NCBI GenBank assembly: GCA_000934665.2
Contig: JYFJ02000982.1
Coordinates: 62,001-97,604 of the forward strand
DNA from: Catajapyx aquilonaris
Taxonomy: Eukaryota
Reading direction: 5' to 3'
DNA: 35,604 nt
The notes beneath the pieces are model-generated. The model saw nothing but the letters and a program-made list of their open reading frames with translations, was not told the origin of the DNA and searched no databases. Position 1 is the stretch's first letter; each line of letters starts with the position of its first letter. The translations under genes and the position numbers were made by a program. Of the stretch, positions 2,307 to 35,604 are shown piece by piece.

Positions 2307-2803
2307 TTGTCATATAAAGTGACGTCATTCCTGCTTAATAAAACAATACATAATTGCAGCGTACACATGACTTGTTATTTCCACCGAGGCCACAGTCCAT
2401 CACGAAATGTGCTAAGCCCGGCCCATTTATCGTTCCTTGGCGTCTGTTTATTTTTGACACATGTTGCTCGTACCCGGCTTCCTGGCTCCCGAACGGTGGG
2501 CACAGGCAAGTGGCGCTGTCTTGCACACATTGCGCATGGCAGAACTTTCCCCTATAGACTACAAAAACATTGGCCTTGACTCCTCTCTCCCATGTGGCGT
2601 AATCACACATGTTGCTTCTTGCCTCCTCCCCAGTTGGAGTTTGGCCCAAGCTGCGTGAGGTTCATTCATCTGGTGCGTCCAATGTGTGCCTGTTCACTTC
2701 GCACTTATTTGGATAGATATGATCTTCTAATTTGCCCAATTTGCTCAATTTTTAGTGCGTGACACCATCACCTTATTGTAGCTTCAGGAGCAATTGAGCA
2801 ATC

Positions 2804-3742
2804 ATGCCGATTGATTTGTACTACTCTGAAGGCAGCCCTTCCTGTGCTGCTGTTCGTCTGACTGCCAAGGCCCTTGGCGTACAGATGAACATGAACAAGT
2901 TCGAATGGAATTCCGGAGAGAACAAGAAGCCTGAGTACCTCAAGGTAATGCACCGTAATTATAGGCGTTGTTCAGTACGGAAAATTTTACAGATGTTGCT
3001 CTGTAGTCTGTTACTGTGAAAGTAGTGTTGGAGTAAGATATTGGTAGCGATATGGTGATGAATTAATAAATCATCTCACATTTGCAGATCAACCCGCAAC
3101 ACACTGTGCCTGCCATTGTGGATGATGGATTTGCCCTGGCCGAAAGGTAAAATGACGAAGCCATTTTTTAAAATTAATGAGCAGGTGACAGATGCTAATG
3201 TGCATATATTTACAGCCGTGCAATCCAGGTGTACCTTGTGACCAAGTACGGCAAGGACGATACTCTGTACCCAAACGATGCCAAGAAGCGAGGTGTTGTT
3301 GAGCAGCGACTCTACTTTGGCATTGGGACACTCGAGAAGCGCTTGTGGGACGTTTATGTAAGTCAAATTCATGTGTAAAAGAGCCATATACGTACAGTTT
3401 AATATTGGCAGAAATTAATCGCAATTTCAGGGTCAAGTTTTCGAAGGGAAGCCTATCAACAAGGATAAGCTCCCCCAGGTGAAGGAGGCACTGGAGATAC
3501 TGGATGGCTACCTGTCCAAGACCAAGTGGGCAGCAGGTGACCACATAACCGTCGCTGACCACAGTCTGGTGACCAGCCTTGGCTGCTACGAAGCTGTTGG
3601 GTTCGATTTCTCCGGTTACAAGAACGTCACCAAGTGGTATAAGCAGTGCCAGGACAACATGACCGATTACAAGGTATCCCATGGAGACGGCGTGGAGTAC
3701 TTCAAGCAGTGGGTTGCCCAAATGGTGGCCGGAAAGATGTAA
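2804..3742 (+). CDS. Delta/Epsilon-class GST-3 (217 aa)
   Basis: Exons 2804-2944, 3088-3146, 3216-3357, 3431-3742. GSPSC active-site motif, [13 protein letters not shown]. Confidence 0.95.
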
Positions 3743-3951
3743 ATGACACTCTAATTCAAGCTGAATAAAAATGTCATGAAGCATTTGAAAAAGATCCGAT
3801 TATGCGTTATTAATACATAATTGGGTATTTAATTTGTGTTAAAACCTCATTTACAGTATTTCGACATTATTTTATCCAAGGACGTGCAGTACTGGATAAC
3901 TAAAGGTGAGCTTCCTTATCATTGGTTATTGGGTCGTTTTTAAATTTGATT

Positions 3952-4357
3952 CACACACATTGCGCATGGCAGCTTCCGTAACTACAAACCATTGGCCTTG
4001 AATTTTTACCTTGAATCATGTCCCATGTTGCATAATATTAACCAGGTTGGGTCTTGCCTCCACCCCAGTTGCCTTTTGGCTTGAGCTTCCTGAGGTTCAT
4101 TCCTCTGGTACGTCCAAGGCACTTATTTGGATAGCTCTAATTCGTCGAATTAGCTTAATTGTTAGTGTGTGACCAACATTGGCTGTTACGACTCTCTTGG
4201 TCACGACTTCTCCGGTTACAAGAACGTGACCAAGTGGTACAAGCAGTGCCAAGAGGAGATGACAGGATACAAGGAGGTCCATGGAGACGGGGTGGAATAT
4301 TTCAGAGAATGGATCAAGAAAGAAGCAGTAAACGGCCGTCTGTACCAAGCGGAATAA
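3952..4357 (+). pseudogene. GST pseudogene: copy of the GST-3 upstream region fused directly to the 3' half of a last exon
   Basis: 3952-4173 resembles 2524-2763 (cacacattgcgcatggcag...cattggccttga...gcacttatttggatag). 4169-4357 encodes GCYDSLGHDFSGYKNVTKWYKQCQEEMTGYKE..., the end of exon 4. Exons 1-3 are missing. Confidence 0.88.
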
Positions 4358-5157
4358 AAAAAATGTGACAGTGTTATTTGTAGATTCACTTTTTCCATAA
4401 AAAGTCGTTACATTTCCTTCCACACAGCCTGGCCTATCACGTCTTTGAGTGATCTAAGGAATTGTCACAAGGTTTTATTTAGGTGGCTTAATTTGGTGGC
4501 TTACACTGAGCAAAACACAGTATTTTATGTCGCTGAAAGTTTGTCATGCGCACATGAAATACAGCTTGCACTTGTACATCTAAACTTTTGGCCGAATGGC
4601 CGGTACTGTAGATATCACAGTGCCATAGTTTATACTGCACAATAGTACAAACCACGTTTTAAAATGCAAGTACAGAACATCAGTGTACACAGTTTTAATA
4701 TGTTCATAATCATATCAAGTAAAAACAACAGAATTAATTTCTTTATTGTACTTTTCACTTATGAAATACACAGCCAGCTCGCGAAATAATTACGGTATAG
4801 TTCAAATTTTGACCTTGGAGTGCTCCGGTGATAAAGGAACACTTTGGTTATGAAACGTGTGACTTTGTAACCAGCACTTGTAGAAACAATTTGTGATAAG
4901 GAGTTAATGACTCAATGTATAGGTCACGGTGCCCATTTTCTCATTTTTATCGACATTACAGCTCGATAAGTGCTGCAGTGGTTATCAGTAGGCCTACACC
5001 GTACGAATATTACTTGGGGAGTCATTTTTTAAACAATTATTAATAATCTAATAAATTAAAACAAAATAATTATCATAACTACGGTAGCATATCTGCGTTC
5101 ATACGTTTATACTGAATTAAGAGTACAAGTTAGTATTTTCTTGCCAGTCATTAGCCT

Positions 5158-5390
5158 GATACAAGGAGGCCCATGGAGACGGGGTCAAGCAAGTGACAGG
5201 CGGAAATTAGTAAGCGACGCGACGGTCTGTACCAAGCGGAATAAAAAATATCAGTGTTATTTGTAGATTCACTTTTTCCATAAAAAGTCGTTACATTTCC
5301 TTCCACACAGCCTGGCCTATCACGTCCTTGAGCGATTGAAGGAATTGTCACACGAAATTTTTTTTTAGGTGGGTTAATCTAGTGGCTTAC
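5158..5390 (+). pseudogene. Second, more decayed duplicate of the pseudogene 3' end and downstream flank
   Basis: gatacaaggaggcccatggagacggggt...gtctgtaccaagcggaataaaaa...cagtgttatttgtagattcactttttccataaaaagtcgttacatttccttccacacagcctggcctatcacgtc closely matches 4266-4505. Confidence 0.85.
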
Positions 5391-5734
5391 CCTTTCAATC
5401 AACCGTACACTTATGTTTGAAATTGCAACAACAACAACATGACGGGTCATTCGCATTGGCCGGTGAAGTTCAACCCTACCTCAGTGGCGAGGATTCAAGG
5501 CTATTTCCTCCATTAAACACGACGTGACGCAACATTCCCATCATTATTATGTCACGACAGGCCTTTAGAAAACGAGGTAACCTTGAAGAGAATACACGAA
5601 TGGTGCACAGTACTTATTCGCAGTAGTTTCCGCATCGATGTCTGGTGCACGTCATTAGTAGTGAGAGTGGCGCATATTGAACAACAAGTAGTTCACTCGG
5701 GAGCAACTTTAGAAGGTTGTGTTCGGTAACAACC

Positions 5735-6674
5735 ATGACAATTGACTTTTACTACAGGTTGGGTTGCCCGTTCAGTGGCGCCTCCCTGCTCACGGCCAAA
5801 GCTTTAGGACTCCAGCTCAACATGAAGAAGATGGACTGGACCAGCGAGGATAATGTCAAGCCATGGTTCATCAAGGTACTTTACGCAAAAATTGTGTCTG
5901 AAAGTCAGTCCGGCTGATTGCAACCGACAATTGCACAATGTTCAAGTGAATCCGCACCCTGATATTTTTGGGGAGTAAGCAGGCAGAGTTCACATTGTAA
6001 TAATGTTGTTTTATTTTTTATTTTTTTTGCAGATGAATCCACTGCACACTGTTCCCACAATTATGGACGACGGATTCGCCCTGGCAGAGAGGTAAATCTG
6101 CTTGCAAAACATACGTATGCAACTATGTAAGTACAAATATTATTCCAATTTTTCAGCCGTGCAATCATGGTGTACCTAGTGACCAAATACGGAAAAGACG
6201 ACACTCTTTATCCAAACGATGCCAAGAAACGCGGATTGGTCGAGCAGCGGCTCAGTTTTGGTCTAGGAACATTAGAGAAGCGCTTTTGGGACATTTACGT
6301 GAGTTGTACCCACACAATAAATCTGTGCAGCTAAATACAAATTTTATTAATTGCAGACACCAGCATTAGACGGCGAACCTATTGACCAGGATAAGATTCC
6401 CAAGCTGAAGGAGGCTCTGGAAATATTGGACTTGTTTATGTCTCAGAGCAAGTGGTCAGCAGGTGACCACATAACAATCGCTGACCACAGTCTGGCTGGA
6501 ACTATAGGCGCCTTTGATGCTGTAGGATTCGATCTCACTCCTTACAAGAATGTGACCAACTGGTACAAGCAGTGCCAGGACAACATGACAGGATACAAAG
6601 AGGCCAACCAGGATGGAGTCGATTATTTTAAAGAATATGCCAGAAGCGTTCTGGGCGACAAACATGTCATGTGA
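5735..6674 (+). CDS. Delta/Epsilon-class GST-4 (219 aa) with Cys at the catalytic Ser position (CPFS)
   Basis: Exons 5735-5875, 6033-6091, 6157-6298, 6357-6674. [38 protein letters not shown]. Confidence 0.95.
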
Positions 6675-6803
6675 GATGTGAATAAAACAAATTCATTTAT
6701 ATGCTAGAGTATGTAGGTCATTTCATCGGAGGTGGCGCTGGTGTACCGTACCTACTAACCGGTAATATGACCTTGACAATTTCACAGTCGTATCGGGTAC
6801 ACG

Positions 6804-6812
6804 TCAGTCGAC
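6804..6812 (+). promoter_or_regulatory. Putative arthropod initiator (TCAGT) of GST-5; equivalents upstream of GST-6 (8388), GST-8 (10939) and GST-9 (12931)
   Basis: TCAGTCGA/CCAGTCGA recurs about 60-80 nt upstream of the ATG (further upstream in GST-9, which has a probable 5'UTR intron) and matches the TCAKTY Inr consensus. Confidence 0.55.
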
Positions 6813-6862
6813 GTCTAGCACACGTTCTGGCCAGGTGTATCTGACAGACTGAAATTGCAACA

Positions 6863-8002
6863 ATGTCGATCGACCTGTACTACATGTTTGGCAGCCCGAA
6901 TTGCGGGGCAGTCATGTTGACCGGCAAGGCTCTTGGGATAGAGTTCAACATTAAGAAGGTGGACTTTGTCAACAAGGAGCATCACAAGCCGGAGTTTCTC
7001 AAGGTATGGCTGTGTAAACACGGGAGGTCAAGAACGTGACCCGGGTAAAAATGTGGCTCAGGTGTCCAATATTGTTTATCTTATCGGTTACATGTCATGC
7101 TTATCGGTTTGTAAACACTTTCAATGTGCGAATGAACAAAAATAAGCCACATGTGTGGCGTAAAAATTTTAACAATGATTCTTCATTATTATCACTGAAT
7201 TTATAATTTCAGATCAATCCTAGACATTCGCTTCCAACCATTGTTGACGACGGATACGCCTTATCAGAAAGGTATGTTCAGCATGATTTAAAAAATACCT
7301 ACAAATCGTCACAATTATACATTAAAAATTGTGAAATATTTCCTGTCATATGCTGTAAACTAATCTGATATATTTTCAGCCGTGCAATAATGGTTTACCT
7401 GGCCACTAAGTACGGAAAAGACTATTCATTGTACCCAAACGATGCCAAGAAGCGCGGATTGGTCGTGCAGAGACTGAACTTTGGCATATGCACATTGGAA
7501 AAGCGTTTGTACGACGTCTATGTAAGTAATCAGAAATTATTTCTCACACTGATAGTATTCATGATTTTAAAGATTGTTGGCAAAGAGCAACTCAGATTGT
7601 TGATAGGCCTGATTTCGTGGTCAACAATGATGATTTCTGTGTCCATCAAAAATATTTAAAGCGTATAAACCAATACTTTTGCAGAAAGTGAAAGTTTTTG
7701 AGGGAAACCACCAGATCATCAAGGAAAAGATCCCTCAAATGAAGGAAGGTCTGGAGATACTGGACGGCTACCTGTCCCAGACCAAGTGGTCAGCAGGTGA
7801 CCACATAACCATCGCCGACCACAGTCTGATAGCAAGCTGCAGCCTGTACTACGTCTTCGGAGTGGACCTGACCCCTTACAAGAACGTGACCCGCTGGTAC
7901 AAGCAGTGCCAAGAGGAGATGCCAGGGTACAAAGAAGCCCTCGGAGATGGAGTTGACATGTACCGATCATGGGCAGAACCAACATTAGCAAAAATGGGAT
8001 AA
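6863..8002 (+). CDS. Delta/Epsilon-class GST-5 (219 aa)
   Basis: Exons 6863-7003, 7213-7271, 7380-7521, 7685-8002. GSPNC motif; the stop codon overlaps AATAAA. Confidence 0.95.
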
Positions 8003-8200
8003 TAAAACTGTAATAACTCATTACAAATATGACCGTCATTTCTAATGGTTCATATTTCGTGCAATTTCCCGCACCTGATGGTAGCTCATTGTGATCATAA
8101 TTAGAGGTGTATGGAATTTATAGTAACATCCCGACCAAGACGTAAACAGAATGAGTAATGAGTAATGAATGTACTGTACAGCGTCACAGGTTCTAGGCAT

Positions 8201-8211
8201 ATGACCGTGCA
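8201..8211 (+). promoter_or_regulatory. Possible antioxidant response element (CncC/Maf) upstream of GST-6
   Basis: ATGACCGTGCA fits RTGACnnnGC about 250 nt before the ATG; short motif that could arise by chance. Confidence 0.3.
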
Positions 8212-8453
8212 GCTATAGTTTACACTCGGTTTAAGGGCAAATAACTGCTCGTGTAAATAGACTTGTTATAGCTTACATCTGGCTGGCACATGTTTACGTA
8301 ACCGGTATTTGATCCGGCACCAACTCAAGGCCAAACTTTGTTATATCATCTTTCAAAAAAAGCACAGCACTATAGAGAGCGCTAGCCTCAGTCGACGTGT
8401 ACTTCTCGTTGTCTCTATACACATATCCTGGTGCTGTCCAAAGTGTTAGAATA

Positions 8454-9374
8454 ATGCCCATCGACATGTACTACATGATTGGTAGCCCGTATTGCGGGGC
8501 TGCCACGCTAACAGCCAAGGCCCTTGGGATAGAGTTCAACATGAAGAGGCTGGACTGGGATAGCATGGATCATCACAAGCCAGAGTTTCTCAAGGTATGC
8601 ACATGGGCCCAGAAAAGATTGGTACAGTACAAACTGACAACGATCGATAAGCCGATTATTTAGCAATTTAGCAATTCAGTAATTAAAATGTTTTTCTAAG
8701 ACTGTTGAACTCTCTTACAGATCAACCCTAGGCACTCTGTACCAACCATTGTTGACGAAGGATATGCCCTGACTGAAAGGTATGGGGACGAGATTCTCCA
8801 ATAATATTTTAAATGACAACTATTTCCGACCTGACTTCTAGTCGCGCCATTATGGTTTACCTGGTGACCAAGTACGGCAAGGACGATTCGTTGTATCCAA
8901 ACGATGCCAAGAAGCGCGGATTGGTCGAGCAAAGACTTAATTACGGCATTGGCACATTGGAGAAGCGATTGTACGACGTCTATGTAAGTAATACTAATTG
9001 CTGACAACACAACCAACATTCCTGATTGTACTGTCAATGAAATATTACTAACCTGACAGGCACCTGCTTTTGAGGGAAGCGACGCAATCAACAAGGCTAA
9101 GATCCCTCAAATGAAAGAAGCCCTGGAGATACTGGACGGCTACTTGTCCCAGTCCAAGTGGTCAGCAGGTGACCACATAACCATCGCTGACCACAGCCTG
9201 GTCGGAAGCATCAGCATCTACGACGTCTTCGGAGTCGACTTTTCCTCCTACAAGAATGTGACCAATTGGTACAAGCAGTGCCAGAAGGAGATGCCTGGTT
9301 ACAAGGAGGCCCACGGAGACGGAGTGGAGGTGTACCGACAATGGGCTCAGCCTCTTTTGGCAGGCAAAGTGTAA
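8454..9374 (+). CDS. Delta/Epsilon-class GST-6 (218 aa)
   Basis: Exons 8454-8594, 8721-8779, 8842-8983, 9060-9374. GSPYC motif. Confidence 0.95.
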
Positions 9375-9924
9375 AGATTCTGGCCTAATAAACAAAGGAT
9401 TAAACACGGGTATTCAGTACAAGCCAAGCCTTTAAATACAAGTAGTATAATATTAGTATCCACCAATTATTATACCAATTTCCAATAACGATTTTATTCT
9501 GACTATAAGAAGATATTAACGTGGCGTCATATAGTCCAAATAATTTTTTTAATGCCAGGTGGTGACATTGATTCAAAAGATCTATTCACAAAAGGTGGTT
9601 TCACAAGAAAAATGTTATTTTCGCTCCTGACAGGGCTTCTTCATTACTAATGAATATTTTTACGCCCTCTGAGAAGTAACTGACATACAGTGGATAGTGT
9701 CAGTTGAATAAATCTGTAGAAGCAGATTTACTAATAGGGCTGTGCTTTGTACCCTACTTGACCTCTGACGTATTAAGTACACTTGCTATCTGCCATATCT
9801 CCACACCGAAAAATGTAGACTTTGAAATCATCAAGTGAACTACACAGTCTTGAGTCGAATCGAGTGCAGCGAGCTGACCTCAAAACTCAAATCCTATTCA
9901 ATTCAAATCCAGCAACAAGTGACA

Positions 9925-18108: not shown

Positions 18109-19025
18109 ATGCCTATCGAGTTTTACTACATGAAGGGCAGCGCGCCTTGCCGTGCAGTGATGCTGACCGCTAAGGCTCTCGGACTTGACCTCATCTTCAA
18201 GGAGGTCAGCGTGCTGGCCAGTGAGCAGCTCAATCCCGAATTCGTCAAGGTAACATAATCTTTGATTATCCAATTTTTTGGACTATAAGATTTGCTAACT
18301 TCTCGCGTGTTTCAGATCAATCCGCAGCATCTTATTCCTACCATAGTGGACGATGGTTATGTGCTTTGGGAAAGGCAAGTACTATGTCTCTCAAATCCAT
18401 GTTAACAAAATAATATTATAAGAATTTTTGTTGTTTTACAAAATTGGATTGGTAAACCATTTTTAATGCAATTAGAGCTTTCAGTAATTTATTAGTCTTC
18501 TCCAGCCGTGCCATTAACGTGTACCTAGTGACCAAGTACGGCAATGACGACTCCATGTGTCCGATAGAGGCCAAGAAGCAAGGATTGTTACATCAGCGAC
18601 TCAACTTTGATCTGGGCACATTGTACCAGCGATTTGACGATGCATATGTAAGTCCATATCCAAACTGCTTTTTACACCAAACCTTACTCTGAATAAAGTT
18701 TCCAGCCATTTTCTTCGGTGGCAAAGAGATCCATAAGGACAAAGTGACATGTGTCGACCAGTCCATGAGTCTGCTGGACCTGTTTCTGGCCCAGTCCAAG
18801 TGGTCAGCAGGTGACCACATAACCATCGCTGACCACAGTCTGGTTGCGACAGTGAGCACAATGGACGCCGTTGGGTATGACCTGACCCCTTACAAGAATG
18901 TGACCAACTGGTACAAGCAGTGCCAGAAGGAGATGCCAGGTTACAAGGAAGCTAACCAGGAAGGGGTCGACGATTTTAGAGAGTTGGCCAAACAAATGTT
19001 GGCTGGGAAGAAATATTCACACTAA
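18109..19025 (+). CDS. Delta-class GST-11 (222 aa), most canonical Delta N-terminus in the array
   Basis: Exons 18109-18249, 18316-18374, 18506-18647, 18699-19025. [38 protein letters not shown] donor on intron 2 and AAG acceptor on intron 3. Confidence 0.92.
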
Positions 19026-20553: not shown

Positions 20554-21548
20554 ATGGGGCCGTTGAAACTGTACCACTGCACGGACAGTCCTCCGAGTCT
20601 GGCGGTCAGGATGACCCTGAAGTACCTGGGCATCGAACCAGAGCTGATTGAGATCGACTTTGCCAATGGGGAGCACATTTCTGATGATTTCAAGCAGGTA
20701 ACAAGTTGTAAAATAAACATCTTTGCTCTCGATAAATTATGTGGGCCTATTCACACTACCAGCAATTAATTGTTGTTTCAGAAATATCCCCAAGGAGAAA
20801 TTCCTCTATTGGACGACGATGGATTTTATCTCGGAGAAAGGTACAGTGCCGGTATGTCACATTCTCATTACCCGCAGTATAAATGCAATGTTACGCATAT
20901 TGCAGCATCGCAATTCATCAGTACGTAGCTGACAAGTTTGCGATCGACGACAAACTGTACCCGAAAGATCTTCAACAGCGAGCCATCGTCAACCATCGTC
21001 TGGCCTTCAACTTGTCCACATATTACGCACCCATCTGGCACCACACTGTAAGTGCAAGTGCAGGTCATACAAGATAAGTGCATGTCATACAATGGAAAAT
21101 AATGGAAACGGATTTTCAGGTGATGCCCATATTTTACGCGTACCCGAAGACGGCCGAGGGAGACCGAAAGGTCACAAATGCCATCAAGGTCATGGACTTT
21201 GCATTGAAAATGTCTGGCACAAAATACGTCGCTGGAGGTACTAATTTGCGAATAATAATTAATGCCATGCAGATAAACAATCCGTAATTTTTTCCCCCCC
21301 CAGATCACTTGACCATCGCAGACAATGCTCTGATCACCTCCACCGGTGTCCTAGAGGCGGTCAGGATCGACCTGACCCCATACCCACATCTGACCCAATG
21401 GTACGAAGGCTTCAAGAAGAACCACCCTGACCTATGGGCCATCGAGGAGCCTGGAATGCTGGAAATGAGAAACTTCCACGACAATCCTCCTGATCTATCG
21501 CATCTCAAGCATCCCTTGCATCCCACCGACAAGAAAGCACTGGGTTAA
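20554..21548 (+). CDS. GSTu1: 'Unclassified' insect GST (GSTu1/Iota-type, 235 aa), GST-12
   Basis: Exons 20554-20697, 20782-20840, 20906-21047, 21120-21237, 21304-21548. Hallmarks PPSLAVRM, EIPLLDDDGFYLGES, RAIVNHRLAFNL and C-terminal NPPDLSHLKHPLHP match the insect GSTu1 family as I recall it. Confidence 0.9.
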
Positions 21549-22444: not shown

Positions 22445-23657
22445 ATGTTGGCGACATTCATGAACCACATGTCCAGTAGGTGCTCCGGCAAGATGTTGAT
22501 GTACTACTATGACCAGTGTCCATTCTGCCGGTCGACAAGGCTGGTGGCCAGGGCACTGGGGATCTGCATGGAGGAGAAGCACGTGGACCTCTCTAAGGGA
22601 GAGAATCAGACACCGGAGTTTGGGAAGGTATTACCAAAAAATAATATAAAACAACGCACCATATGAAAAAGCAAAACTAGCTTGACATGAATTGCTAGCC
22701 GTACTTTTTAACCATGTTTGCATTGAACTGCTCAATTATTCCGAATGAAAGCCAATCCAGGAAATTAATTGTCAATTCCACTCTCCAGATCAATCCAACA
22801 CGCCAGGTTCCAACTCTCATCGATGGCGACCAGACATTGTGGGAGAGGTAATTAAGCAGTGTTTGCCAAAATATTGAATCATTCATGATATTCCAGAGAG
22901 AGAGAGAAGAAAAAAAAAAATCTGTTGGAAATTTGAATCGATAAAAATGCAAAGATTTAATAGGGTGTAATGAAGTGAGTAGATCAACCCGTGATTATTT
23001 TTTGCTGTTTGCCACTAATTAAAGTAATATTTTAACTTCATCCTTTTTAGTCGCCCATTGATGATGTACCTTGCGGAGAAGTATGGCCAGAAGGACGGTG
23101 GCACCTTTTACCCAACAGATCCTGTGAAGCGATTTCGTATCAACGAAAAGATTTTCTACGAGGCTGGGACTCTCACTAGACAATACATTCAGTGCTACGT
23201 ATGTATGACATGCTCACAAGGTGTAGTCAGGAGTTTGATTAATTTTCACCTCTAAGAGCTAGCTTCATAGATTCAATAGATTTCAAATTAACACCCTGTT
23301 TTGCAAAACATTTTACTGATTCCATTTTCATTTCAGATACCAGTTATAAAACAGGGAGCAGCAGTTGATCCACAGAAGAAGCAGCTGCTTCTGGATGCTC
23401 TGAAAAATGTGGATGACATACTTTCGAAGACTAAATGGATTGCTGGTGATAACATGACCGTTGCTGATTGTGCCTACATCGCGTTCATCACTACAATTGA
23501 GGCGGTCAAAGTGGACATGAGTCCATACCCAAACATCCGTCGCTGGATCTCTGATTGCAAGAGTACGATGCCTGGATACGAGGAGGTGAACGAGTATGGG
23601 ATCAAGCAGTTCAAGGAGAAATTGGTTAACAATATTCCAGCCCTCAACCAGCAGTAA
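22445..23657 (+). CDS. Divergent Delta/Epsilon-fold GST-13 with CPFC active site (236 aa if the first ATG is used)
   Basis: Exons 22445-22627, 22789-22847, 23051-23198, 23337-23657. YYYDQCPFCRSTRL, INPTRQVPTL, LWESRPL, WIAGDNMTVAD. Start codon uncertain (22445/22460/22469/22493). Confidence 0.92.
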
Positions 23658-24824
23658 CTTATTTATGTTTGGCAGCTAATGAGCAGCTTATTATTTGATG
23701 TGAAGAGCACAGTGTCCTTATGTGTGGCTGCTACTTACATGCACTTACGAGAAGATAAATATATTGATAATGGTATACACTGTGTTTTGCATGTTACTGA
23801 TGGAATTTAGGTTCAATATCTGTTATAATAAAGAGCTCTATGCCCACAGGTTCTAGGTGTGCAAAGTAGTACTGATTGTCATAACCAATAAGATAATTAT
23901 TATTATTTACTATTCTCATCACCATCATTAGAATGTGACATGACATCACAATAGGTCTATTACACATTGTCACGTCACTCAGCCATATCACGAGGATAGA
24001 CAGCAACGCTGTACGTACTATACTTGTCAATAATTGTTTCTCAGAATTACAGAGTTGCGAAAGCCGGAACTTATATCTGCACTAGTTGAAACAAAATAGG
24101 CTCGTCTCTTTTATCAAGCCAGTTTGGTTATTGTTTATGTAAAGTTGGTAAAACTGAAATTACAGTTTACTGCTTTACTGTACAATATTATTATTAAATA
24201 TCCATAATTCATGCATTTAAAACTAGCCATGCTCTACTATAGCATATATCAAGGTATGCAAATATGATTAAGAAAAGCCCTAAATGACCTCTAGACAGTA
24301 AAAGAGGAAGTTGTCTGTTTGCTCCAAGGCCATCCAACATTCGCAATTCCTGCATATTCATATAGGTAAGTAGTTATACATAAGTGACAATAAAAGAATT
24401 TAATGGCGCCACCCAAGGTCAACCAAGTTTTGCACTACACTATACCTCTCTCCCTGAGTTATCTCAATATTTATTATCACAACTTCACAAGATCATGGAA
24501 ATCTGTCTAGTCATAAGATCATGTTTTGACGTGTGGCATAATTTGTAGGCTATCATTGATCGACGAACACATGTCAAAGAATTTGAAAAAGTACAGTACA
24601 TGACATAAAAATCTTCAACACATTCCAACTAATAAATCACGTTAAATATTTCCACTTAACCACTTAACCTTAACCTTCGTGAGGTATTTAAAAAAAACAC
24701 ACACCATCACATCATAGCTTATCTGTCAGTTACCCCCTCATATTTGCTCGTTGCCAAGCTTCGCCTCGACCTTTAGATTGTCGCGGAATGAGCACCGTTT
24801 CGCCGTCTATACGACACCTTGGAA

Positions 24825-25704
24825 ATGCAGGGCACACTTGTCCTGTATTATGCAGACCTTTGCCCTAACTCCTGGACCGTACGACTCGCATCCAGGGAGC
24901 TGGGTTTGACCATGGAGGAGAAGCTCATCGACGAATCAAACACTGCCGAATTTGAACAGGTCCACAACCCAATTCATTATTAAATACTGCATACTAGGAA
25001 AAATAATTGCTAATTGTAATTTGTATTTACAGGTCAGTCCGAAACGTCGGATTCCAACACTTATGGACGGAACACTATCCTTATGGGACAGGTATGTTAT
25101 TTTCTTTAAGAAAAATTGACTCTCCAGCTACTGTCACTTTGCCTCATGAATAAACCGAGTGGTCAATTTGTCAGCCGTCCTTTAGTGATGTACCTGGCCG
25201 ACAAGTACGGAGATGGAGGGACCCTGTACCCGAAGGACCCTCTCAAGCGATTCGCCGTCAATAAAATGATGCTTTACGACGAAGTAAACCTGGCCAATCG
25301 ATTCGCCCAGTGCTACGTACGTCATAATAAAAATGTGACCATTTCCCAATCACCACATGTACGCAACTAGTAAAAAGATACATGTAAAAAAGCTTCCAGT
25401 TATCCAGCAAGGAGCATCGGTGGACATCCAGAAACAGACGCTGCTTAGAGAATCGCTCAGTTACTTGGACCACATTTTGGCAGAGTCCAGATGGATCGCT
25501 GGACACGACCTGACCATAGCTGACCACTGCTGCGTGTCCATAGTGGCTGCCTGCAAGGCCTGCAAATTCTGCACGTGCGACACTCCGAATCTCAAGAGAT
25601 GGATGGCCGACTGTCAGAGGACCATGGTTGGACACAAAGAGGTTCTGGGACGTGGGATCAAAGTGCTGGAGAAGTTACTGGAGAACATTCCAGCTCTCCA
25701 GTAA
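24825..25704 (+). CDS. Divergent GST-14 with CPNS active site and Cys-rich C-domain (215 aa); paralog of GST-13
   Basis: Exons 24825-24959, 25033-25091, 25175-25316, 25393-25704. LYYADLCPNSWTVRL, VSPKRRIPTL, LWDSRPL, WIAGHDLTIAD. Weak GTCCAC donor on intron 1 and AAG acceptor on intron 3. Confidence 0.85.
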
Positions 25705-25908
25705 CGAACGTCTTGTGTAATACTAATAAAGTCAATGGTGACAAAAATATTAATATCTATACCGTAATCTAAACGTCGCGACAGACAACAAATAAGAGAT
25801 TGGCTTCAATGAGGCAACAGCGTTGCTCAGTAACTCTGTCAACACTGGATGATGCCCGATAAACACGCCCGCTGACCTCTCAGAGTAACGGGATAAAAGA
25901 GCGAAATC

Positions 25909-26956
25909 ATGGATAACAAGGCATCGTCCGAGTTATATTCCAACCCGATACCGAAGCCTCAGAAGGCGATCCCGATGCAGCTCTACCACTATCGGTTCTG
26001 TCCGTTCTGCCGGTCAGTACGGCTGACCATCAAGACTTTGGGCCTGGAGGTCACAGAGGTCGAGATTGACCTCAGGAAAGGAGAGCAGCTCACCGCTGAA
26101 TTCATGCAGGTAAGTGCAAGTTTTACATCTGAGTTTGACATGTGACGCGATCATGTGAACAGCAAGAGTGCCTATACTAATAGTGTTGCAAAAATTTTGG
26201 CAGTTGAATCCACGACATACGGTCCCTGTGCTAATCGACGATGACCTGGTCATGACCGAGAGGTAATGTACCTATGTCACACTTGAACAAATTTTAGTCA
26301 TCATATTAATGCAAAATTTCGCAATAATTCCAGTCGTGCCATAATGATGTATTTGGCCGACAAGTACGACAAAAAAGGTGTGATCTACCCGAAAGATCCA
26401 AAGGCCCGAGCATGGGTCAACGAGAGGATGTTCTTCGACATGGCGACACTCTCGTCTCGTTACGTCAATTGCTACGTAAGTCTTTATAGTGAAATGAAAT
26501 GTCTTCAACTATACACTAATTTGGCAAAACAGGTTCCAGTTCTGCGACACGGCGACCCATTGGATCCGGCCAAGAAGAAGCTGGTCCACGACGCACTGGA
26601 CATAATCGACGGATACCTAACTCAGACAAAGTACATCGCTGGACAATCGATGACTATAGCAGACCACGCTTTTGTGGCCGTCATATCAACTCTGGCGGTA
26701 ACATACACGCTTTTTTTTATAGATATTACGAGCCAAAAAAATTTGAAACACGTGTGATAACTGGTATGTATCTCTCCAGGCCGTGAGGCTGCACATGGAC
26801 CCGTACAAGCGCATAAATTGGTGGTACAACAGGTGCCAGAGTGTCCTTCCAGGGTACCAGGAGATCGTACAGGACAACCTGGACGCCTTCGTGGAGGAAT
26901 TTGTCAGCAAGTGCCCCTACCTGCAGCCGGTCACTGACGGCTGCGTGTACGAGTAA
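25909..26956 (+). CDS. Divergent Delta/Epsilon-fold GST-15 with CPFC active site (247 aa)
   Basis: Exons 25909-26109, 26204-26262, 26334-26475, 26533-26697, 26780-26956. LYHYRFCPFCRSVRL, GEQL, LNPRHTVP, ESRAI; AATAAA follows the stop. Confidence 0.92.
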
Positions 26957-27420: not shown

Positions 27421-29695
27421 AATTGCAACATTTTCCTGGTTCCAGACTGTTCTTACTTTAACATCATTTTTTTTAAAAAAAGAGAAGTGACAGACAAGAA
27501 TCGCCTATTATTCCTGCCATTATTGCAGTTGGATCCGCCCCAGCCAGATATACAGACAGCTTGTTGCTATATAGGGTTGTCATTTTGCTGCCTCGCAAAA
27601 CTGGGAATGCAAAAATCATCTCTCGAGGCTTCATGAAAAAGATACAGCCGGATGACGTCCCAGTTGCAAAACACCCATATTATGTTTCGCACTGCATCCA
27701 AATCGCACCAGATTTCTTTAAAAAAATAACGAACGAGTCCTGGCAAAAAGGGGCCAACCAAACCGGACAAATTGCCACTTAATTTGGCCGGAAAGTGTTT
27801 GGAAAAGAGCCCATCGCGGTTTAGCTTTCCAAGCCAAGAGAGAGAGAGAGAGTTAGATAGTCCGGAACATTCCGGCAGGAAGCGACTCCAAGCGGACGGG
27901 ATTTTGGGCCCAATCAAATCCTCGTTTTCCGAACAGTTTCTCTCTCTATCTAGCTCTCTCTCACACACACACACAAAACCTTGTGTAGTATAAACGACTT
28001 AGGCTCAAATTCTCGTTTGCTTTTGTTTAACAATTCAAGCTGCAGGGACCATTAATCTTTCCTTCCCCCCCCCCCCCTTTTTCCTCCTCATATATATCCG
28101 GNCATATATATCCGGATTTGTAATCTTATACCCAGTGCAAGTTGGACACGGCCGCGCTTTATTACTTCTTGCTATATGAACTCTGGGTTGTTTAAATAGT
28201 CATGCGGATAATGGACTCGTCCTTCTCCGGCATGTTGGCGATGAGATAATGCGAGTTTAATTTGCTGCACTGCCATGATCGTTTACTGCTAGTTTACCAT
28301 GAGGATCATGTTTGATTTATAAGCCTCTTACGGAGCATTCACATTAAAGTGTGTTTTTTTTTTTTCTTTTTCTTTTGAAGGTGAGGCTTGCATTTTTTTC
28401 ACCAAATACGCTTAAAGACAATAAGTAAAATAAACAAAGAAATGAATAATGACACTCTTAAAAATATTATAATAAAACGTATAAAATTATAGACTATCAA
28501 ATAAAATCAGTGCAGTACGTAATTATACTTATAAGGAAATAATAGGGCATGGAATTACGTTCATAAATAAATCCAAAAGCTAATGACTTATACTACAGAG
28601 CAATAGAAAAATATAAAAATTGAAGGAAGTGCGCAATGAATATAAAATGTGATTAAATAAGTACGGAATTATATGCATACATAATTATACAAGAGGTTAC
28701 TTCTAATCAGATCGCCTAAATATACGAAAAAAAATTAATTATGTAACGTTACTAGCAATAAATCAAAAAATAAAACAAAATGATTGTAGATGTGCCTACT
28801 AGGTGTATTCGTACAATAGTATAGTAAATTACCTGATATTATAATGAACGAAAATCAGCAAATACACAAGGAAATGTTTTTAAAATACTTGTCATAAATA
28901 AATAAATGACTGTCCGTTATCCCACGACATGAGATGCTGTAGAGCCAGTTTCCTGCAGTCGTTTTCGATCAGGGTATTGGCAAAATGAATAGTTTTTTTT
29001 TTTGCAAAAATGCAAATAACCGGACTCCCAGCAGCCTCTTCCGCTACAGAAAGTTGCATGAAATTAATAAGGCTGGAGCTCTGTTTTGAGGCCTGGATGC
29101 AGTATGCGGAATCCCGCATGAATAAATTATCTTAAAATTCTGTAACACTTTTGCGGCTACCAGAAAAGCAACTGCTATTTTTGAAACTGACCCAAAAATG
29201 CATAGTCCGCAGTTTACACAACCCCGGACCCCCCCCCCCCNCCCCCCTCATCCAACTTATTCAGGTGGTGGTATATAGGGGGAGGTGGAAATAAAAGCAG
29301 TTCCTTATTAGACGAGCTTTGCGGTTAACCCCAGTTGTTTGTCACAAGTGCACCGAAGTGCCTTTTGCACTTGATTTTTATTAATGCATGAACTTGAACC
29401 ATATTAATAACCTTATGATACATAGTGCGAAATTAGAGCAACCTTGATAAACGAAAAATTTTATTTGTAGCAAATGGTAGCACGTATGTTGCGTATAGTG
29501 TGTTAATAAATAATCATCTTCAGTTGTTAGAAAAAAATATTTAATAACTAGTAGAGTACCAGGCTTGGCCCACCCCCTAACTTGGACGTAGTACTGTACG
29601 TCTGTACGATAGGCCACAACCAGTTGCCGCATAGGCTGTGCACACTCCTGCCACTCTCAGGGAGACAGTAGTACTACATGCACATTGGCGATGAG

Positions 29696-30598: not shown

Positions 30599-30778
30599 GG
30601 ATAGGGACGGAAGGAAGCGGCTGTGGCCTATTATTTTAGGAAACAACCCGGAATTTATCTGGAGGGACCGTGGGAAACCACAGAAAACCACGGTTAGTGT
30701 TTCCGGCCCCGGGGATCGAACCCAGGACCTCCCGATTAGCAGTCGGATGCCATATCCTCTCCTCCACTACTGCTCCGG
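30599..30778 (-). mobile_element. Second copy of the tRNA-derived SINE (3'-truncated)
   Basis: Reverse complement reads ...tccgactgctaatcgggaggtcctgggttcgatccccggggccgg...ccgtggttttctgtggtttcccacggtc...taataggccacagccgcttccttcc, matching 21850-22025. Confidence 0.92.
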
Positions 30779-30847
30779 TAGTAAATACCAATATTTGATA
30801 ATAAAAAAATAATATTTGATAATTAAGTAGGCCTACTACGGTACTTA

Positions 30848-31579
30848 ATAATTTAAAATAATAAACAATAATAAACAAATAATAATAAACAATAAATAAA
30901 TAATAATAAACAATAAATAAATAATAATAAACAATAAATAAATAATAATAAACAATAATAAACAAATAATAATAAACAATAAATAAATAATAATAAACAA
31001 TAAATAAATAATAATAAACAATAATAATAATAATAAACAATAAATAAATAATAATAAACAATAAATAAATAATAATAAACAATAATAATAATAATAAACA
31101 AAAATAATAATAAACAATAAATAAATAATAATAAACAATAATAATAATAATAAATAATAATAATAAACAATAAATAAATAATAATAGACAATAATAATAA
31201 ATAATAATAATAAACAATAAATAAATAATAATAAATAATAATAATAAACAATAAATAATAATAATAAACAATAAATAAATAATAAGCAATAAATAAATAA
31301 TAATAAACAATAAATAAATAATAATAAACAATAATAATAAATAATAATAAACAATAATAATAATAAATAATACTAAACCAGAATATGTAATAAACAATAA
31401 ACAATAAATAAATAAATAATACTAAACCAGAATATGTAATAAACAATAAGCAATAAATAAATAAATAAATAAATAAATAATACTAAACCAGAATATGTAA
31501 TAAACAATAAGCAATAAATAAATAAATAAATAAATAAATAATACTAAACCAGAATATGTAATAAACAATAAATAATAAC
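30848..31579. repeat. Compound AAT/AAAT/AAAC satellite ending in four copies of a longer unit containing aatactaaaccagaatatgtaataaacaataa
   Basis: Directly visible; it produces the spurious Ile/Tyr/Leu/Phe-rich minus-strand ORFs. Confidence 0.95.

Positions 31580-31651
<72 letters not shown>
31580..31651. repeat. (AGT)n microsatellite, about 24 units
   Basis: Pure gtagtagtag run. Confidence 0.97.
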
Positions 31652-31652
<1 letters not shown>

Positions 31653-32808
31653 ATACTGGCTTTTGCATGTGAGTCCGGTTCGGATTTTCCCCAAGTTTCT
31701 CTATACCGTATAGACGTATATACAGTGTTTGCTCCACTGCAAGACCTCTTGAGAGTATAGCCTACTTGTGATATTATGCAATTGCGACCATATACTTCTG
31801 CATTATATTATACAGACCGATTATGTAAGACCCTGCCCTTGATTTAAAGCCTGCCGCATCAAGCATGGTTGCCAACTGGTTCTTCCAGCCCCCATCATTC
31901 GCACACAACATGACTCTTGGCCGCATTGACAACATCCACTCCGGAGCAAACATCCGGATTTAACAAGCCGCATCAGGTAGATCCACCTGCATCATTCTCA
32001 TCAGTCGATAGTGCAGGTTGTATCGGTTCAGTATACCCCAGCCCACATCTAGACCATAGGGGTGGAGGCTCTCGTCCCCCTCCGAAGGGGGGGGAAAAAA
32101 ATGATGAAAAGAAAATGACAATGAAAATCCCGGAAATGCAGGAAATTCGTGCCCAGAAACAAGGCTACCACCTTGAAATAGCTGGATATTGATGTGCCCC
32201 CTTTTTTTTGTAGGAGTGTTAGACCGGGGCTGGAGATGGGTGGTTGGGAGTAGATATCCCCCGCGGGAGAAATAAAGGTAGTAGCGTAGGTAGGTTATAG
32301 TGGCCCCTCCTACACCCGGAAGTGGAATGGGCCCAAGAGAGGGGTGCAGTAGGGCGAGGGTGAGGGTGGAGGGGGGTAGATAGAATGTGTCCAGAGCCCG
32401 AAACGTCCTAGGGCAAGTGCGGGAGGTCCCGCCAGCACACAACCGAGCCCAGGATTGGATCGAACGGGCACGCCTGCGCAAGGCTAGGAGAGAAGCAGAG
32501 GCATCGAAAAGGGGGGCAAACCCAAAACCCTCACCCAAAAACCTAGAGCCCCCCTCTTTCCCCCACTTCGGATATATCCTCCCGCATGCTTACTTCTCCA
32601 AAACTACGCGGACAGTACACCTCGCGAAAAAATCGCCCCATGAAGTGCGGCACTTAGTGCTTCACTTCTCAAAGTTTTTTTTTTCTTTCGTTCCCCCTCC
32701 ACCGGACCTAAACCTTTTTGACCCCCACCTCGTGTCTGTTTGGTGCGTTATGCGGACGATCTGATTTCGAGTTCAGAAGTTTCCGAGTCCGTGGTTCGCC
32801 AGAGAGCC

Positions 32809-33688
32809 ATGGCTCCTGACCTCCTAGGGGACACCTGGGGGAGTTTCTTCGTCAACCGACACCAGCATCCCGAGAGTAGCCTCAAGTCCGAGTCGCTGCG
32901 TCTTCCGGACTCGGACGTACCGGGTATCGGCATCCTGCTGGGAAAGGAGCCGTCCGGATCGGTACCGCACCACCACCAGCTGACACCGTCCTCGTCCTCG
33001 CAGGCGTCGGCAGCAGCGGCGTCTCCGGCGTCGTCTCCAACCTCCTCCAGGTCGGAGCACGACCTCAACTACCTGCCACCGGTCACACTCAACATGAACC
33101 TGGTGTATCCGGCTCGGAAGCCAGTGCTGCTCCTGCCCGGAACTCCGTTGTCCGGAGAGCCTCGTCCGCAGGCTAACATCACCAAGTCGCTGCTAAACAC
33201 CGTCAACAATTCGGTGCTGTCTCTTCTGGGAGGAAGCACCGGAAGCAACGACCACGTCCATCTGTCGCCGTCGCACGACCGACACGTGTCGTCGTCCATC
33301 TCGCTCGAGTTCCTGGCCAACCGGACATCCAACGACAGCTCAGGTGCCAGCCTCTTGGAGATCGTGTCCGGAGGCGTCGCGGGCGTCGTCAGCAGCAACT
33401 CCGATCCGGCGTCGGTGGCCTCTTCCGAACCGGATGACCACACCTTCAGTGCCATCCCGCCAGAACTATTCTACAGGCACTCGTTCGCGATGACCATGGT
33501 CTACTGCGTCGCATACCTCCTGGTCTTCGTGGTCGGCCTGGTCGGCAACTGCTTCGTGGTCGCTGTCGTCTGGAGGGTCCCCCGGATGAGGACCGTCACC
33601 AACTACTTCATCGTCAACCTGGCCGTCGCAGACATCCTCGTCATCGTCTTCTGCCTCCCAGCAACCCTCATGTCCAACATCTTCGTCC
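32809..33688 (+). CDS. SIFaR: SIFamide receptor (class A neuropeptide GPCR), first coding exon: long N-terminus plus TM1-TM2; the remainder lies outside the window
   Basis: gccATGg Kozak context at 32809. [72 protein letters not shown] matches insect SIFaR as I recall it (GN in TM1, NLAxAD in TM2). Donor GTGAGT at 33689. Confidence 0.9.
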
Positions 33689-35604
33689 GTGAGTATTCAA
33701 ATTTCCCGCCCTATTGTGCTCTGAAGCAGTGCTGCCAACAGAACGGCCAGACGCGTCCCGGACGCGCTCCGGACTTAAATGTTGGCATCCCTGCCTTTAT
33801 TTGCGCTGGCTCAACCGAATTGAAATCAACTTACATTTTAAAAATAATCAGCAAGTACAGTGTGTACCAAAATTTCTGTACTGGACATGTTTCTGGATAA
33901 ATTATTTTGAATTGAAAATACGAGTTGTTCCGTTGTGTCCATTCTTTTCCTATTGGTTCAGATGGCTGGGGGTCAACCGCAGGTAAGTTCGGCCAGCACG
34001 TGCGGTCTGCAGTAAACAAATCGATGTCCAATCAATAGTCAGCGCCTAAACATCCGGTTTCCCCCCACTTTCGCCCGTGTATAGATGTATAGAAAGTGAT
34101 GCAAAGCTAAAGAGAGGGGAAACCCGGAAGTGCAGTGGAGCGGCCCAATAAAGCGGGGGCGCTCCCACCCACCCACAGCTCGATTCAGTGAACCCCTCCA
34201 ACAAACCTCCCGCTCGCAAAATCGCAACATTAGAGTTTACACACACAAAAAATTGTGGTTTTGAGGAAATAGCATTACTTTTTCAATATTTTGTATCCGG
34301 TACTAGAGAATCGGTCGTGCTGGTGTCCAGGTGGGCCAAACAGGTCCTAAAATCGGATCAGCATGCGAGAAACCCCTGAACTTTTTGTAGGGCATAACAT
34401 CTAGGATCAATCGGATGTAATATACTGCACAAATTTAAGGTTAATCTCTAAATGAGATATAAACAAATTTTTAAACAAAAAAATAGTGCGAATCCGCGAT
34501 ATGATAAGCTGAGGAGAAAAACACGTTAACCTCCACATTTGTCAATTTTGAGTTCCAACCAACATTAGCAAATGAACTACTTTTGCAATAATAATCTTGT
34601 CCGTCTTTTGAACAAAGCAAAAAAAGGGCTGCTCAGAAGCAGTGCGCCAACATTTTGAAGAAAAACATGTTAACCGCCAGCAACATGATCACATGTGCCA
34701 CGGCGTTTGTTTTCCGACAAAAACTCGCAACAAGAAAATATGTAAAAAAAATACTAATAAATAAAATTTAGCAAAAAATATCAACAAATAAATTAGCATG
34801 GAATATCAATGAATAAATAAAATTGGCAATGCACTGTTACTTATATGGCCATTGAAATTGAAATGTTGTTACAATTAAACCCAGTAAATAAAATCGGGCT
34901 GGATTTGCGCTTGTTAATAATAATTGGCAGAAACTAACCGTTAATAACGAGAGTAATTCGACCAGATTTTGTTGTACCGAGTTAATTCATGGCAAACCTT
35001 TGGTAGATCCCAAGGAAATTCCGAGTGAATCTATATAGTCCCTTGGTTAATTCGTGGTGATATGAGTTAAGCCAGGTGGGAATCTGAAACATTTAGGGGA
35101 ACAAATTCTAGGAGAATCCGGAGTAAATCCCAAGGAATGTACGTTCAGGTAAATTAAGATACAAATTGAGATTTGCTATAGGTTAAAATGTCTGGTGAAA
35201 TCGATCGTCCCAGGCAAATTTTTAGGATGATCCAATGTATCATCAGTTGAGTTTAAGGGGAGATAATTCGACTCGAAAAAATTTAAATTAAGTAGGTTAC
35301 ATGATTAACAACATACGCAAGAAATGTGCTCCTTTTTGAAGCCAAGTCAAGCCACATTTCCCTCGTTATTAATTGGCCACTCTACCCAAAACGAATGGCC
35401 CAAACTTTTGCACACAAAACTTTGCAATATTTTTCTGCATTTCCTCCCTCTAGGCATTTCCTCTTTTTCTTTTCTTTCTTTTAAAAATTCGGAGGCATAA
35501 ATATAAGATGTGGTTCGTCCCACATTTCCTTCGGCTTAATCGGGTTGTGCGGAACTTCCGGGGATGCTCCAGGAGTTTCTCCTGTAGGTTGGAAGGGAGG
35601 GAGG

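Follow-up and report, generated by a model that had tools for sequence, protein, structure and literature searches.

Within an array of mostly Ser-type glutathione transferase (GST) genes, one gene has a cysteine where its neighbors have the catalytic serine. Is this cysteine real, did it arise on its own, and what would it do to the chemistry of the enzyme? The window analyzed here is a stretch of 35,604 nucleotides of Catajapyx aquilonaris DNA that holds 15 GST genes (g1–g15), all on the + strand and arranged head-to-tail as a tandem array, and the gene in question is the fourth, g4. In Ser-GSTs, the serine hydroxyl stabilizes bound glutathione as a thiolate, ready for conjugation. A cysteine at the same position reacts itself and forms an enzyme–glutathione mixed disulfide, a chemistry described for the Omega, Lambda, DHAR and CLIC proteins in the available text of PMC4138524.

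The g4 gene and its active-site motif

The g4 gene lies at 5735–6674 on the + strand and encodes 219 amino acids in four exons with an intact reading frame:

5735..5875, + strand: exon 1, 47 codons from the ATG, followed by GT; β1-α1-β2 of the thioredoxin-like domain, with the active-site motif
5765..5776, + strand: codons 11–14, TGC CCG TTC AGT, Cys-Pro-Phe-Ser
5864..5866, + strand: codon 44, TGG, Trp
6033..6091, + strand: exon 2, with AG..GT borders; carries His52, Val54 and cis-Pro55, and Leu51 in place of Gln
6157..6298, + strand: exon 3, opening with the Glu66-Ser67-Arg68 glutathione-binding triad, in which the intron interrupts the Ser67 codon
6357..6674, + strand: exon 4, the C-terminal helical domain, with the stop codon TGA at 6672–6674

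Direct reading confirms the TGC at 5765 from which the original prediction started, with residues 10–14 reading Gly-Cys-Pro-Phe-Ser and the 11th codon occupying 5765–5767. Exon 1 and the first exons of g2, g3, g5, g6, g7, g10 and g11 each have 47 codons and align with no gaps, and Cys11 falls on the Ser of these seven genes. Cys11 therefore occupies the column of the catalytic Ser, and Ser14 occupies the column of the usual Cys three positions on (+3). In g6 the same four codons are AGC CCG TAT TGC. The g4 signature thereby mirrors the ancestral S-P-x-C and is a monothiol. The catalytic Ser had been said to be encoded by AGC or AGT, one A-to-T step from Cys, in every Ser-type paralogue with exon 1 in the window, and this is so for all ten (eight AGC and two AGT). 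This proximity is true but not special, because the TCY codons for Ser are likewise one step from Cys.

Transcription and splicing

Five sequencing runs match the region. Four are DNA-like and come from one sample, possibly the source of the window, while X5, the fifth, belongs to a separate study of another sample. One spliced X5 contig, 630 letters long, bridges the three introns of g4 and matches the window at every letter, at a depth of 15.3 (contigs give no expression level, and their depths were not used to rank expression). It covers 5669–5873, 6031–6089, 6155–6298 and 6357–6578, and the joints, with a two-base ambiguity allowed, fall at 5875>6033, 6091>6157 and 6298>6357, all of them GT..AG. 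The DNA runs, compared over 2700–9500, do not contain these g4 joints. Spliced X5 contigs were also recovered for g3, g5 and g6, and that of g3 stops at 3820 in a poly(A) run, about 78 bases past the g3 stop codon. The kind of run is not on record for X5, and it is read here as RNA-derived on the strength of the splicing in its contigs and of the poly(A) end.

The TGC is thus genuine and g4 is transcribed and spliced as modeled, because an independent spliced contig carries the gene without a single difference. The original prediction had named a sequencing error and an unexpressed gene as two findings that would undo it, and the X5 contig disposes of both. An error of sequencing or assembly is a highly improbable source of the codon, and so is a rare or private somatic variant. 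The same TGC occurs in DNA contigs of X1, X2 and X4 (5297–6569, with no other letters), but these three runs may share the source sample of the window and do not count as independent, and contigs hide minor alleles, which leaves room for polymorphism at the TGC codon. Against this stands the spliced contig from the other sample and study, at its depth of 15.3 and with no differences in 630 letters.

Independent origin of the cysteine

Three further members of the array carry Cys in the catalytic column, and the origin of the g4 motif has to be weighed against these and against the Ser-type neighbors:

8454..9374, + strand: g6, Ser-type paralogue with the motif S-P-Y-C, spliced in X5
22493..26956, + strand: g13, g14 and g15, a separate Cys-type clade
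22517, 24861 and 25999, + strand: Cys codons of g13, g14 and g15, in the motifs CPFC, CPNS and CPFC, respectively

The original prediction held that exons 2–4 of g4 are close to the Ser-type neighbors and not to g13–g15, and that Cys arose at least twice within the array. The first statement is borne out by nucleotide identities for exons 2–4 of 67.5–72.5% to g1–g11 versus 46–51% to g12–g15. Exon 1 follows the same pattern, with 58–70% identity to g2–g11 (69.5% to g6 and 66.0% to g5) and 43–51% to g12–g15.

The second statement was assessed by parsimony counts of state changes and by AU tests. In a tree of the 15 array proteins, g13–g15 form a clade (support 96/93), the sister group of g4 is ((g1,g3),(g5,g6)) (83/83), and two changes of the Cys label are needed in 200 of 200 bootstrap trees. 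An outgroup tree was built with 31 full-length proteins of 200–260 amino acids with one complete N-domain, taken from the best 150 of 603 exon 4 matches. Here g1–g11 form a clade (100/96) in which g11 and g10 branch first (99/94 and 95/87), g4 groups with g1, g3, g5 and g6 (99/93), and g13–g15 (100/97) fall elsewhere among Ser-type outgroups, such that the well-supported branches force two changes of state. The Cys of g4 is a secondary gain from Ser at any root, because the gene is nested under several supported Ser-type nodes. A grouping of g4 with g13–g15 is rejected by the AU test on the whole protein without the four motif columns (p 0.0135, lnL difference 16.8). The exon 1 nucleotide tree (129 columns) places g4 inside the Ser-type group (81/94), but here the AU test does not reject g4 plus g13–g15 (p 0.065).

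That last, borderline value is one of the few observations that would favor gene conversion, in which g4 would have acquired its Cys motif as a copy from g13–g15; the others are a 6-nt run, CCGTTC, common to g4 and g15, and the Phe that g13 and g15 have in common with g4. Conversion should have left exon 1 of g4 clustered with g13–g15, a possibility that the original prediction had itself raised, but exon 1 is Ser-type-like throughout, being only 43–51% identical to g13–g15 and 58–70% identical to g2–g11. In sliding 30-nt windows along exon 1, a Ser-type gene is the best match in 13 of 13 (63–80% versus 43–63% for the Cys-type genes), and no converted tract is visible. Near the motif, g4 shares no more than 6 identical nt in a row with g14 or g15, and the run it shares with g6 is equally long. 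The codons themselves also differ, with TGC for Cys in g4 versus TGT in g13 and g15, and AGT at +3 in g4 versus TGC. Conversion can accordingly be regarded as very improbable, and g4 is almost certainly a real, expressed and independent change from Ser to Cys.

Delta class membership and the glutathione site

Exon 4 of g4 scores above the Pfam cut-offs of GST_C_2 (31.1 bits, cut-off 24.9) and GST_C (26.6 bits, cut-off 20.7), while exon 1 alone (47 amino acids) gave no Pfam match at E 0.01. Exon 1 does align without gaps to residues 1–47 of bmGSTD, a Delta GST of Bombyx mori (3VK9; E 3.9e-6), with Cys11 on Ser11. The best solved relative of exon 4 is 3WYW (1.2e-20), followed by 8Z3B, 3VK9, 9NXU and 1PN9, and the top six chains span E values from 1.2e-20 to 1e-15. 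Four of the six were named Delta by their depositors, and those with generic entry names are presumably Delta GSTs as well. Epsilon chains score much lower than Delta chains, and Omega, DHAR and CLIC chains are absent from the PDB matches of exons 1 and 4.

The gene therefore has the two-domain GST fold, a thioredoxin-like N-domain with a helical C-domain, and its closest characterized relatives for both exons 1 and 4 are Delta. It differs from insect Delta GSTs, which usually have S-[A/P]-P-C with a catalytic Ser11 and Gln51, in having C-P-F-S with Cys11 and Leu51, and so departs from the class signature S-[A/P]-P-[C/S] at its catalytic residue. The glutathione site (G-site) of bmGSTD comprises Ser11, Gln51, His52, Val54, Glu66, Ser67 and Arg68 in the available text of PMC4954967. 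Five of these seven residues (His52, Val54, Glu66, Ser67 and Arg68) are common to bmGSTD and g4, and Pro55 is also kept; with Ser11 set aside the count is five of six, the exception being Gln51, which is Leu in g4 as it is in g10. Residues 11–14 also match the CP[F/Y/W]x signature of Cys-GSTs at the start of helix α1, but g4 sits within a clade of Ser-type Delta genes and does not descend from a recognized Cys-GST class. On this comparison, g4 is Delta by descent yet without the class-defining catalytic Ser, and bears the Cys-GST signature without Cys-GST descent.

Rarity of the motif and the accompanying changes

To the libraries searched, g4 shows less than 50% identity among the best 150 of 603 matches listed. 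N-domain matches were obtained for 88 of these 150, and 75 of the N-domain matches cover the catalytic column. In that set of 75 outgroups, the catalytic residue is Ser in 70, Cys in one (P0073), and Val, Ala, Asn and Gly in one each; within the array it is Ser in 10 of the 14 members with exon 1. The following positions in the same 75 outgroups hold Pro (40) or Ala (25) at +1, Pro (61) and only once Phe at +2, and Cys (55) or Ser (17) at +3. P0073, a Delta-like GST, is thus the sole other Cys in this column among the 75, and it differs from g4 in its motif, C-S-S-C without Pro-Phe, and in resting on a single-member cluster and a 1111-base contig. The tail of P0073 is a low-complexity sequence rich in Lys, Met and Arg. 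A search of open-access text for a natural Cys-type Delta GST found no paper.

The original prediction saw a parallel gain of both the Pro and the Phe that follow the Cys. The Pro has to be struck from this, as it is ancestral and occurs in 13 of 14 array exon 1s (as in the 40 of the 75 listed outgroups), while the Phe stands, being common to g4, g13 and g15, but at a site that was already variable. The +2 Pro is kept in g2 and g7–g12 and lost in the g3/g4/g5/g6 subclade (2804–9374), where the residues are Ser, Phe, Asn and Tyr. The signature had loosened before g4 gained its Cys, because this whole subclade is without the usual +2 Pro. Cys occurs together with a +2 Phe in two of three Cys lineages versus 1 of 84 others (hypergeometric p 0.0024, with outgroup rows treated as independent), but the association carries little weight because the rows are taken as independent and +2 was already variable in the subclade of g4. 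Convergence of g4 on CPF could be partly chance, as Tyr to Phe is a small step.

Position 44 sets g4 apart in a different way. It is Trp in g4 and Glu or Asp in the other 13 array members, mostly within a K-P-E-F motif, and among the 75 outgroup N-domains (from the best 150 of 603 matches) it is Glu or Asp in 63 and Trp in none.

Age, constraint and the possibility of decay

The expansion that contains g4 had been described as young, a description that does not survive the synonymous distances. Pairwise Nei-Gojobori dS between g4 and each of g1–g11 is 1.24–1.70, which is saturated, and the array is old; even the closest pairs have dS values of 0.56 (g1–g3), 0.58 (g8–g9) and 0.72 (g5–g6). The suggestion that the motif points to selection goes further than what is visible, which is long-term purifying constraint without a change of rate. 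Pairwise Nei-Gojobori dN/dS between g4 and g1–g11 is 0.13–0.23 (0.17–0.28 for other pairs), and Tajima relative-rate comparisons of g4 with g3, g5 and g6, using four outgroups each, gave chi-square values below 1.6 in 12 of 12. The gene is under ordinary purifying selection, with no burst or relaxation seen over the whole branch.

Protein homologue searches for orthologues with g4 exon 1 and exon 4 returned no scoring match, and a representative-protein search with exon 4 gave 603 matches at E ≤0.001, none above about 49% identity among the best 150 listed. The Ser-to-Cys switch is therefore undated, because orthologues were not found and dS is saturated. The switch may be recent, in which case the low dN/dS would describe the time before it.

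This timing bears on the possibility that the change is neutral or mildly deleterious drift in a redundant paralogue, in which the loss of Ser disabled conjugation and left g4 as a non-catalytic ligand binder or a decaying gene. Redundancy is plausible given the ten other similar Ser-type copies in the array, and a decayed copy adjoins g4 in the 2 kb that separate it from g3:

4166..4321, + strand: relic of a decayed paralogue that resembles exon 4; 71% identity to the g1 C-terminus, with a stop codon a short way upstream

The undated switch and the orthologue searches without a match also count on this side, as does the number of unique deviations at columns otherwise invariant across g1–g11, which is only three in g4 and no more than in its neighbors (one to nine). 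The frame and all splice sites of g4 are, however, intact, the gene is transcribed and spliced, its dN/dS is 0.13–0.23 with a rate equal to that of its sister genes, and a retained G-site is combined with a motif that matches a working monothiol signature. Drift is on balance unlikely, though it is the more credible of the alternatives weighed for the function of g4.

Proposed chemistry

The explanation that we prefer, with a probability of roughly 0.58, is that g4 is an intact, transcribed and spliced Delta paralogue that independently changed Ser to Cys and would now carry out thiol-transferase-type chemistry. A single A-to-T change, AGC to TGC, on the branch of g4 itself turned the catalytic Ser at the N-terminal end of helix α1 into Cys, independently of the older Cys-type clade of g13–g15. 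The rest of the glutathione site (His52, Val54-Pro55 and Glu66-Ser67-Arg68) is retained, and with the +3 Cys replaced by Ser and Phe between them, the result is a monothiol Cys-Pro-Phe-Ser like that of cytosolic DHARs and CLICs. Cys11 would then cease to activate the thiol of bound glutathione for conjugation and would itself attack glutathionylated or oxidized substrates, giving a Cys11-SG mixed disulfide from which a second glutathione would regenerate Cys11. Such chemistry would be of the thiol-transferase, deglutathionylation or dehydroascorbate-reductase type. The protein is best read as a putative monothiol Cys-GST on a Delta fold, because it combines the C-P-F-S signature with an intact G-site.

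DHARs are monomers and plant proteins. Their motif had been equated with that of g4, and CPFS is indeed tabulated for cytosolic DHARs and CLICs (PMC4138524, in part). That source gives CP[F/Y]x motifs as typical of Cys-GST classes, and the signatures in its Table 2 are CPFA for Omega, CP[F/Y]A for Lambda, CPFC/S for DHAR, CPFS for CLIC and CPFC for mPGES-2. DHAR and CLIC (CPFS, as in g4), Omega (CPFA) and mPGES-2 (CPFC) thus resemble g4 in having a CPF signature at the start of helix α1, and for g4 a monothiol mechanism would be predicted from this likeness (PMC4138524, in part). None of them is a sequence relative of g4, however, as both the sequence and the tree position of g4 are Delta. Of the other GST genes in the window, g13–g15 share with g4 the fold, the array and the Cys column, and in g13 and g15 the +2 Phe, but they form their own clade (100/97) at 46–51% nucleotide identity and have a dithiol CPFC in g13 and g15 and a monothiol CPNS in g14.

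The change of chemistry is inferred from a published plant GST in which the same residue was exchanged. In the available text of PMC4274894, the S13C mutant of poplar GSTF1 lost its activity with CDNB, its peroxidase activity and its other conjugating activities, gained thiol-transferase activity with HED (kcat/Km 1.1e3 M-1 s-1), and carried a +305 Da glutathione adduct when purified from E. coli. Like g4, this is a Ser-class GST in which the catalytic Ser became Cys, with a change from conjugation to deglutathionylation (PMC4274894, in part), but it is an engineered enzyme of the plant Phi class, whereas g4 is a natural arthropod Delta gene. By this analogy, the chemistry of g4 has probably shifted from conjugation to thiol exchange.

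Other members of the Phi class leave room for a different outcome, in which conjugation is retained alongside deglutathionylation because Ser14, Ser17 or other residues activate glutathione. The available text of PMC6540824, citing Pegeot 2017, describes poplar Phi GSTs without the Ser, among them some whose signature includes a Cys, that kept conjugation and added deglutathionylation, and it suggests that nearby hydroxylated residues may activate GSH in such enzymes. Ser14 (+3) and Ser17 (+6) are both new in g4, at positions where most paralogues have Cys and Val. The +3 Ser is, however, shared by g9, g10 and g12, which are ordinary Ser-type genes, and the direct test of a Ser-to-Cys exchange, poplar GSTF1 S13C, abolished conjugation (PMC4274894, in part). 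The natural Phi proteins PtGSTF8 and AtGSTF12 have their Cys elsewhere in the signature (AVCP and AACP), unlike g4 (PMC6540824, in part). A dual activity of this kind is improbable, and slightly more so than drift.

Implications for GST evolution

A change from Cys to Ser at the start of helix α1 is described in the available text of PMC6540824 as the step that led from thioredoxin- and glutaredoxin-like redox proteins to conjugating GSTs. The g4 lineage has naturally taken the reverse step, from Ser to Cys, within a Ser-class family. The array holds another such event at a distance of 17 kb, distinct from this one, which makes the two replicate lineages. With the nearest exon 1 to g4 (69.5% nucleotide identity), g6 is the natural comparison partner, and g5 and g3 are also nearby Ser-type genes; set beside these partners, g4 is a test case for a single-residue switch of chemistry in the Delta fold, in which the accompanying changes of interest are Phe13, Cys14Ser and Glu44Trp. 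Annotation also calls for some caution, as a gene called a 'Delta GST' need not encode a conjugating detoxification enzyme.

A bolder and more tentative reading, for which we would offer somewhat less than even odds, is that the array records two independent returns to the ancestral thioredoxin-type Cys chemistry that converged on CPF[S/C], with g4 a working and selected monothiol deglutathionylase or reductase and g6, with its S-P-Y-C, a near-ancestral form. If true, the locus would amount to an experiment, run and replicated by nature, on the smallest number of steps that change the reaction type of an enzyme.

Gene models and other features of the window

Four exons each are found in g2–g11, g13 and g14, and five each in g12 and g15, while g1 is truncated by the start of the window and has only exons 3–4 (144–674) within it. 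Reading frames are open in all 15 models, every intron has an AG acceptor, and the donors are GT throughout with the sole exception of a GC donor in g11, where exon 2 ends at AG|GCAAGT (18374–18376). The extra introns of g12 (21238–21303) and g15 (26698–26779) split the equivalent of exon 4 in models based on reading frame and GT..AG alone, and they suggest two separate gains because their positions differ by about 20 codons.

Downstream of the array, a long open frame at 32722–33897 (+ strand) ends in a match to the first 63 positions of Pfam 7tm_1 (E 4.8e-12) and probably represents the opening coding exon of a rhodopsin-family GPCR gene. The G+C content around this frame is 56%. A highly A+T-rich, low-complexity repeat block at 30636–31761, with about 30% G+C, separates the GST array from the GPCR exon, and single Ns occur at 28102 and 29241.
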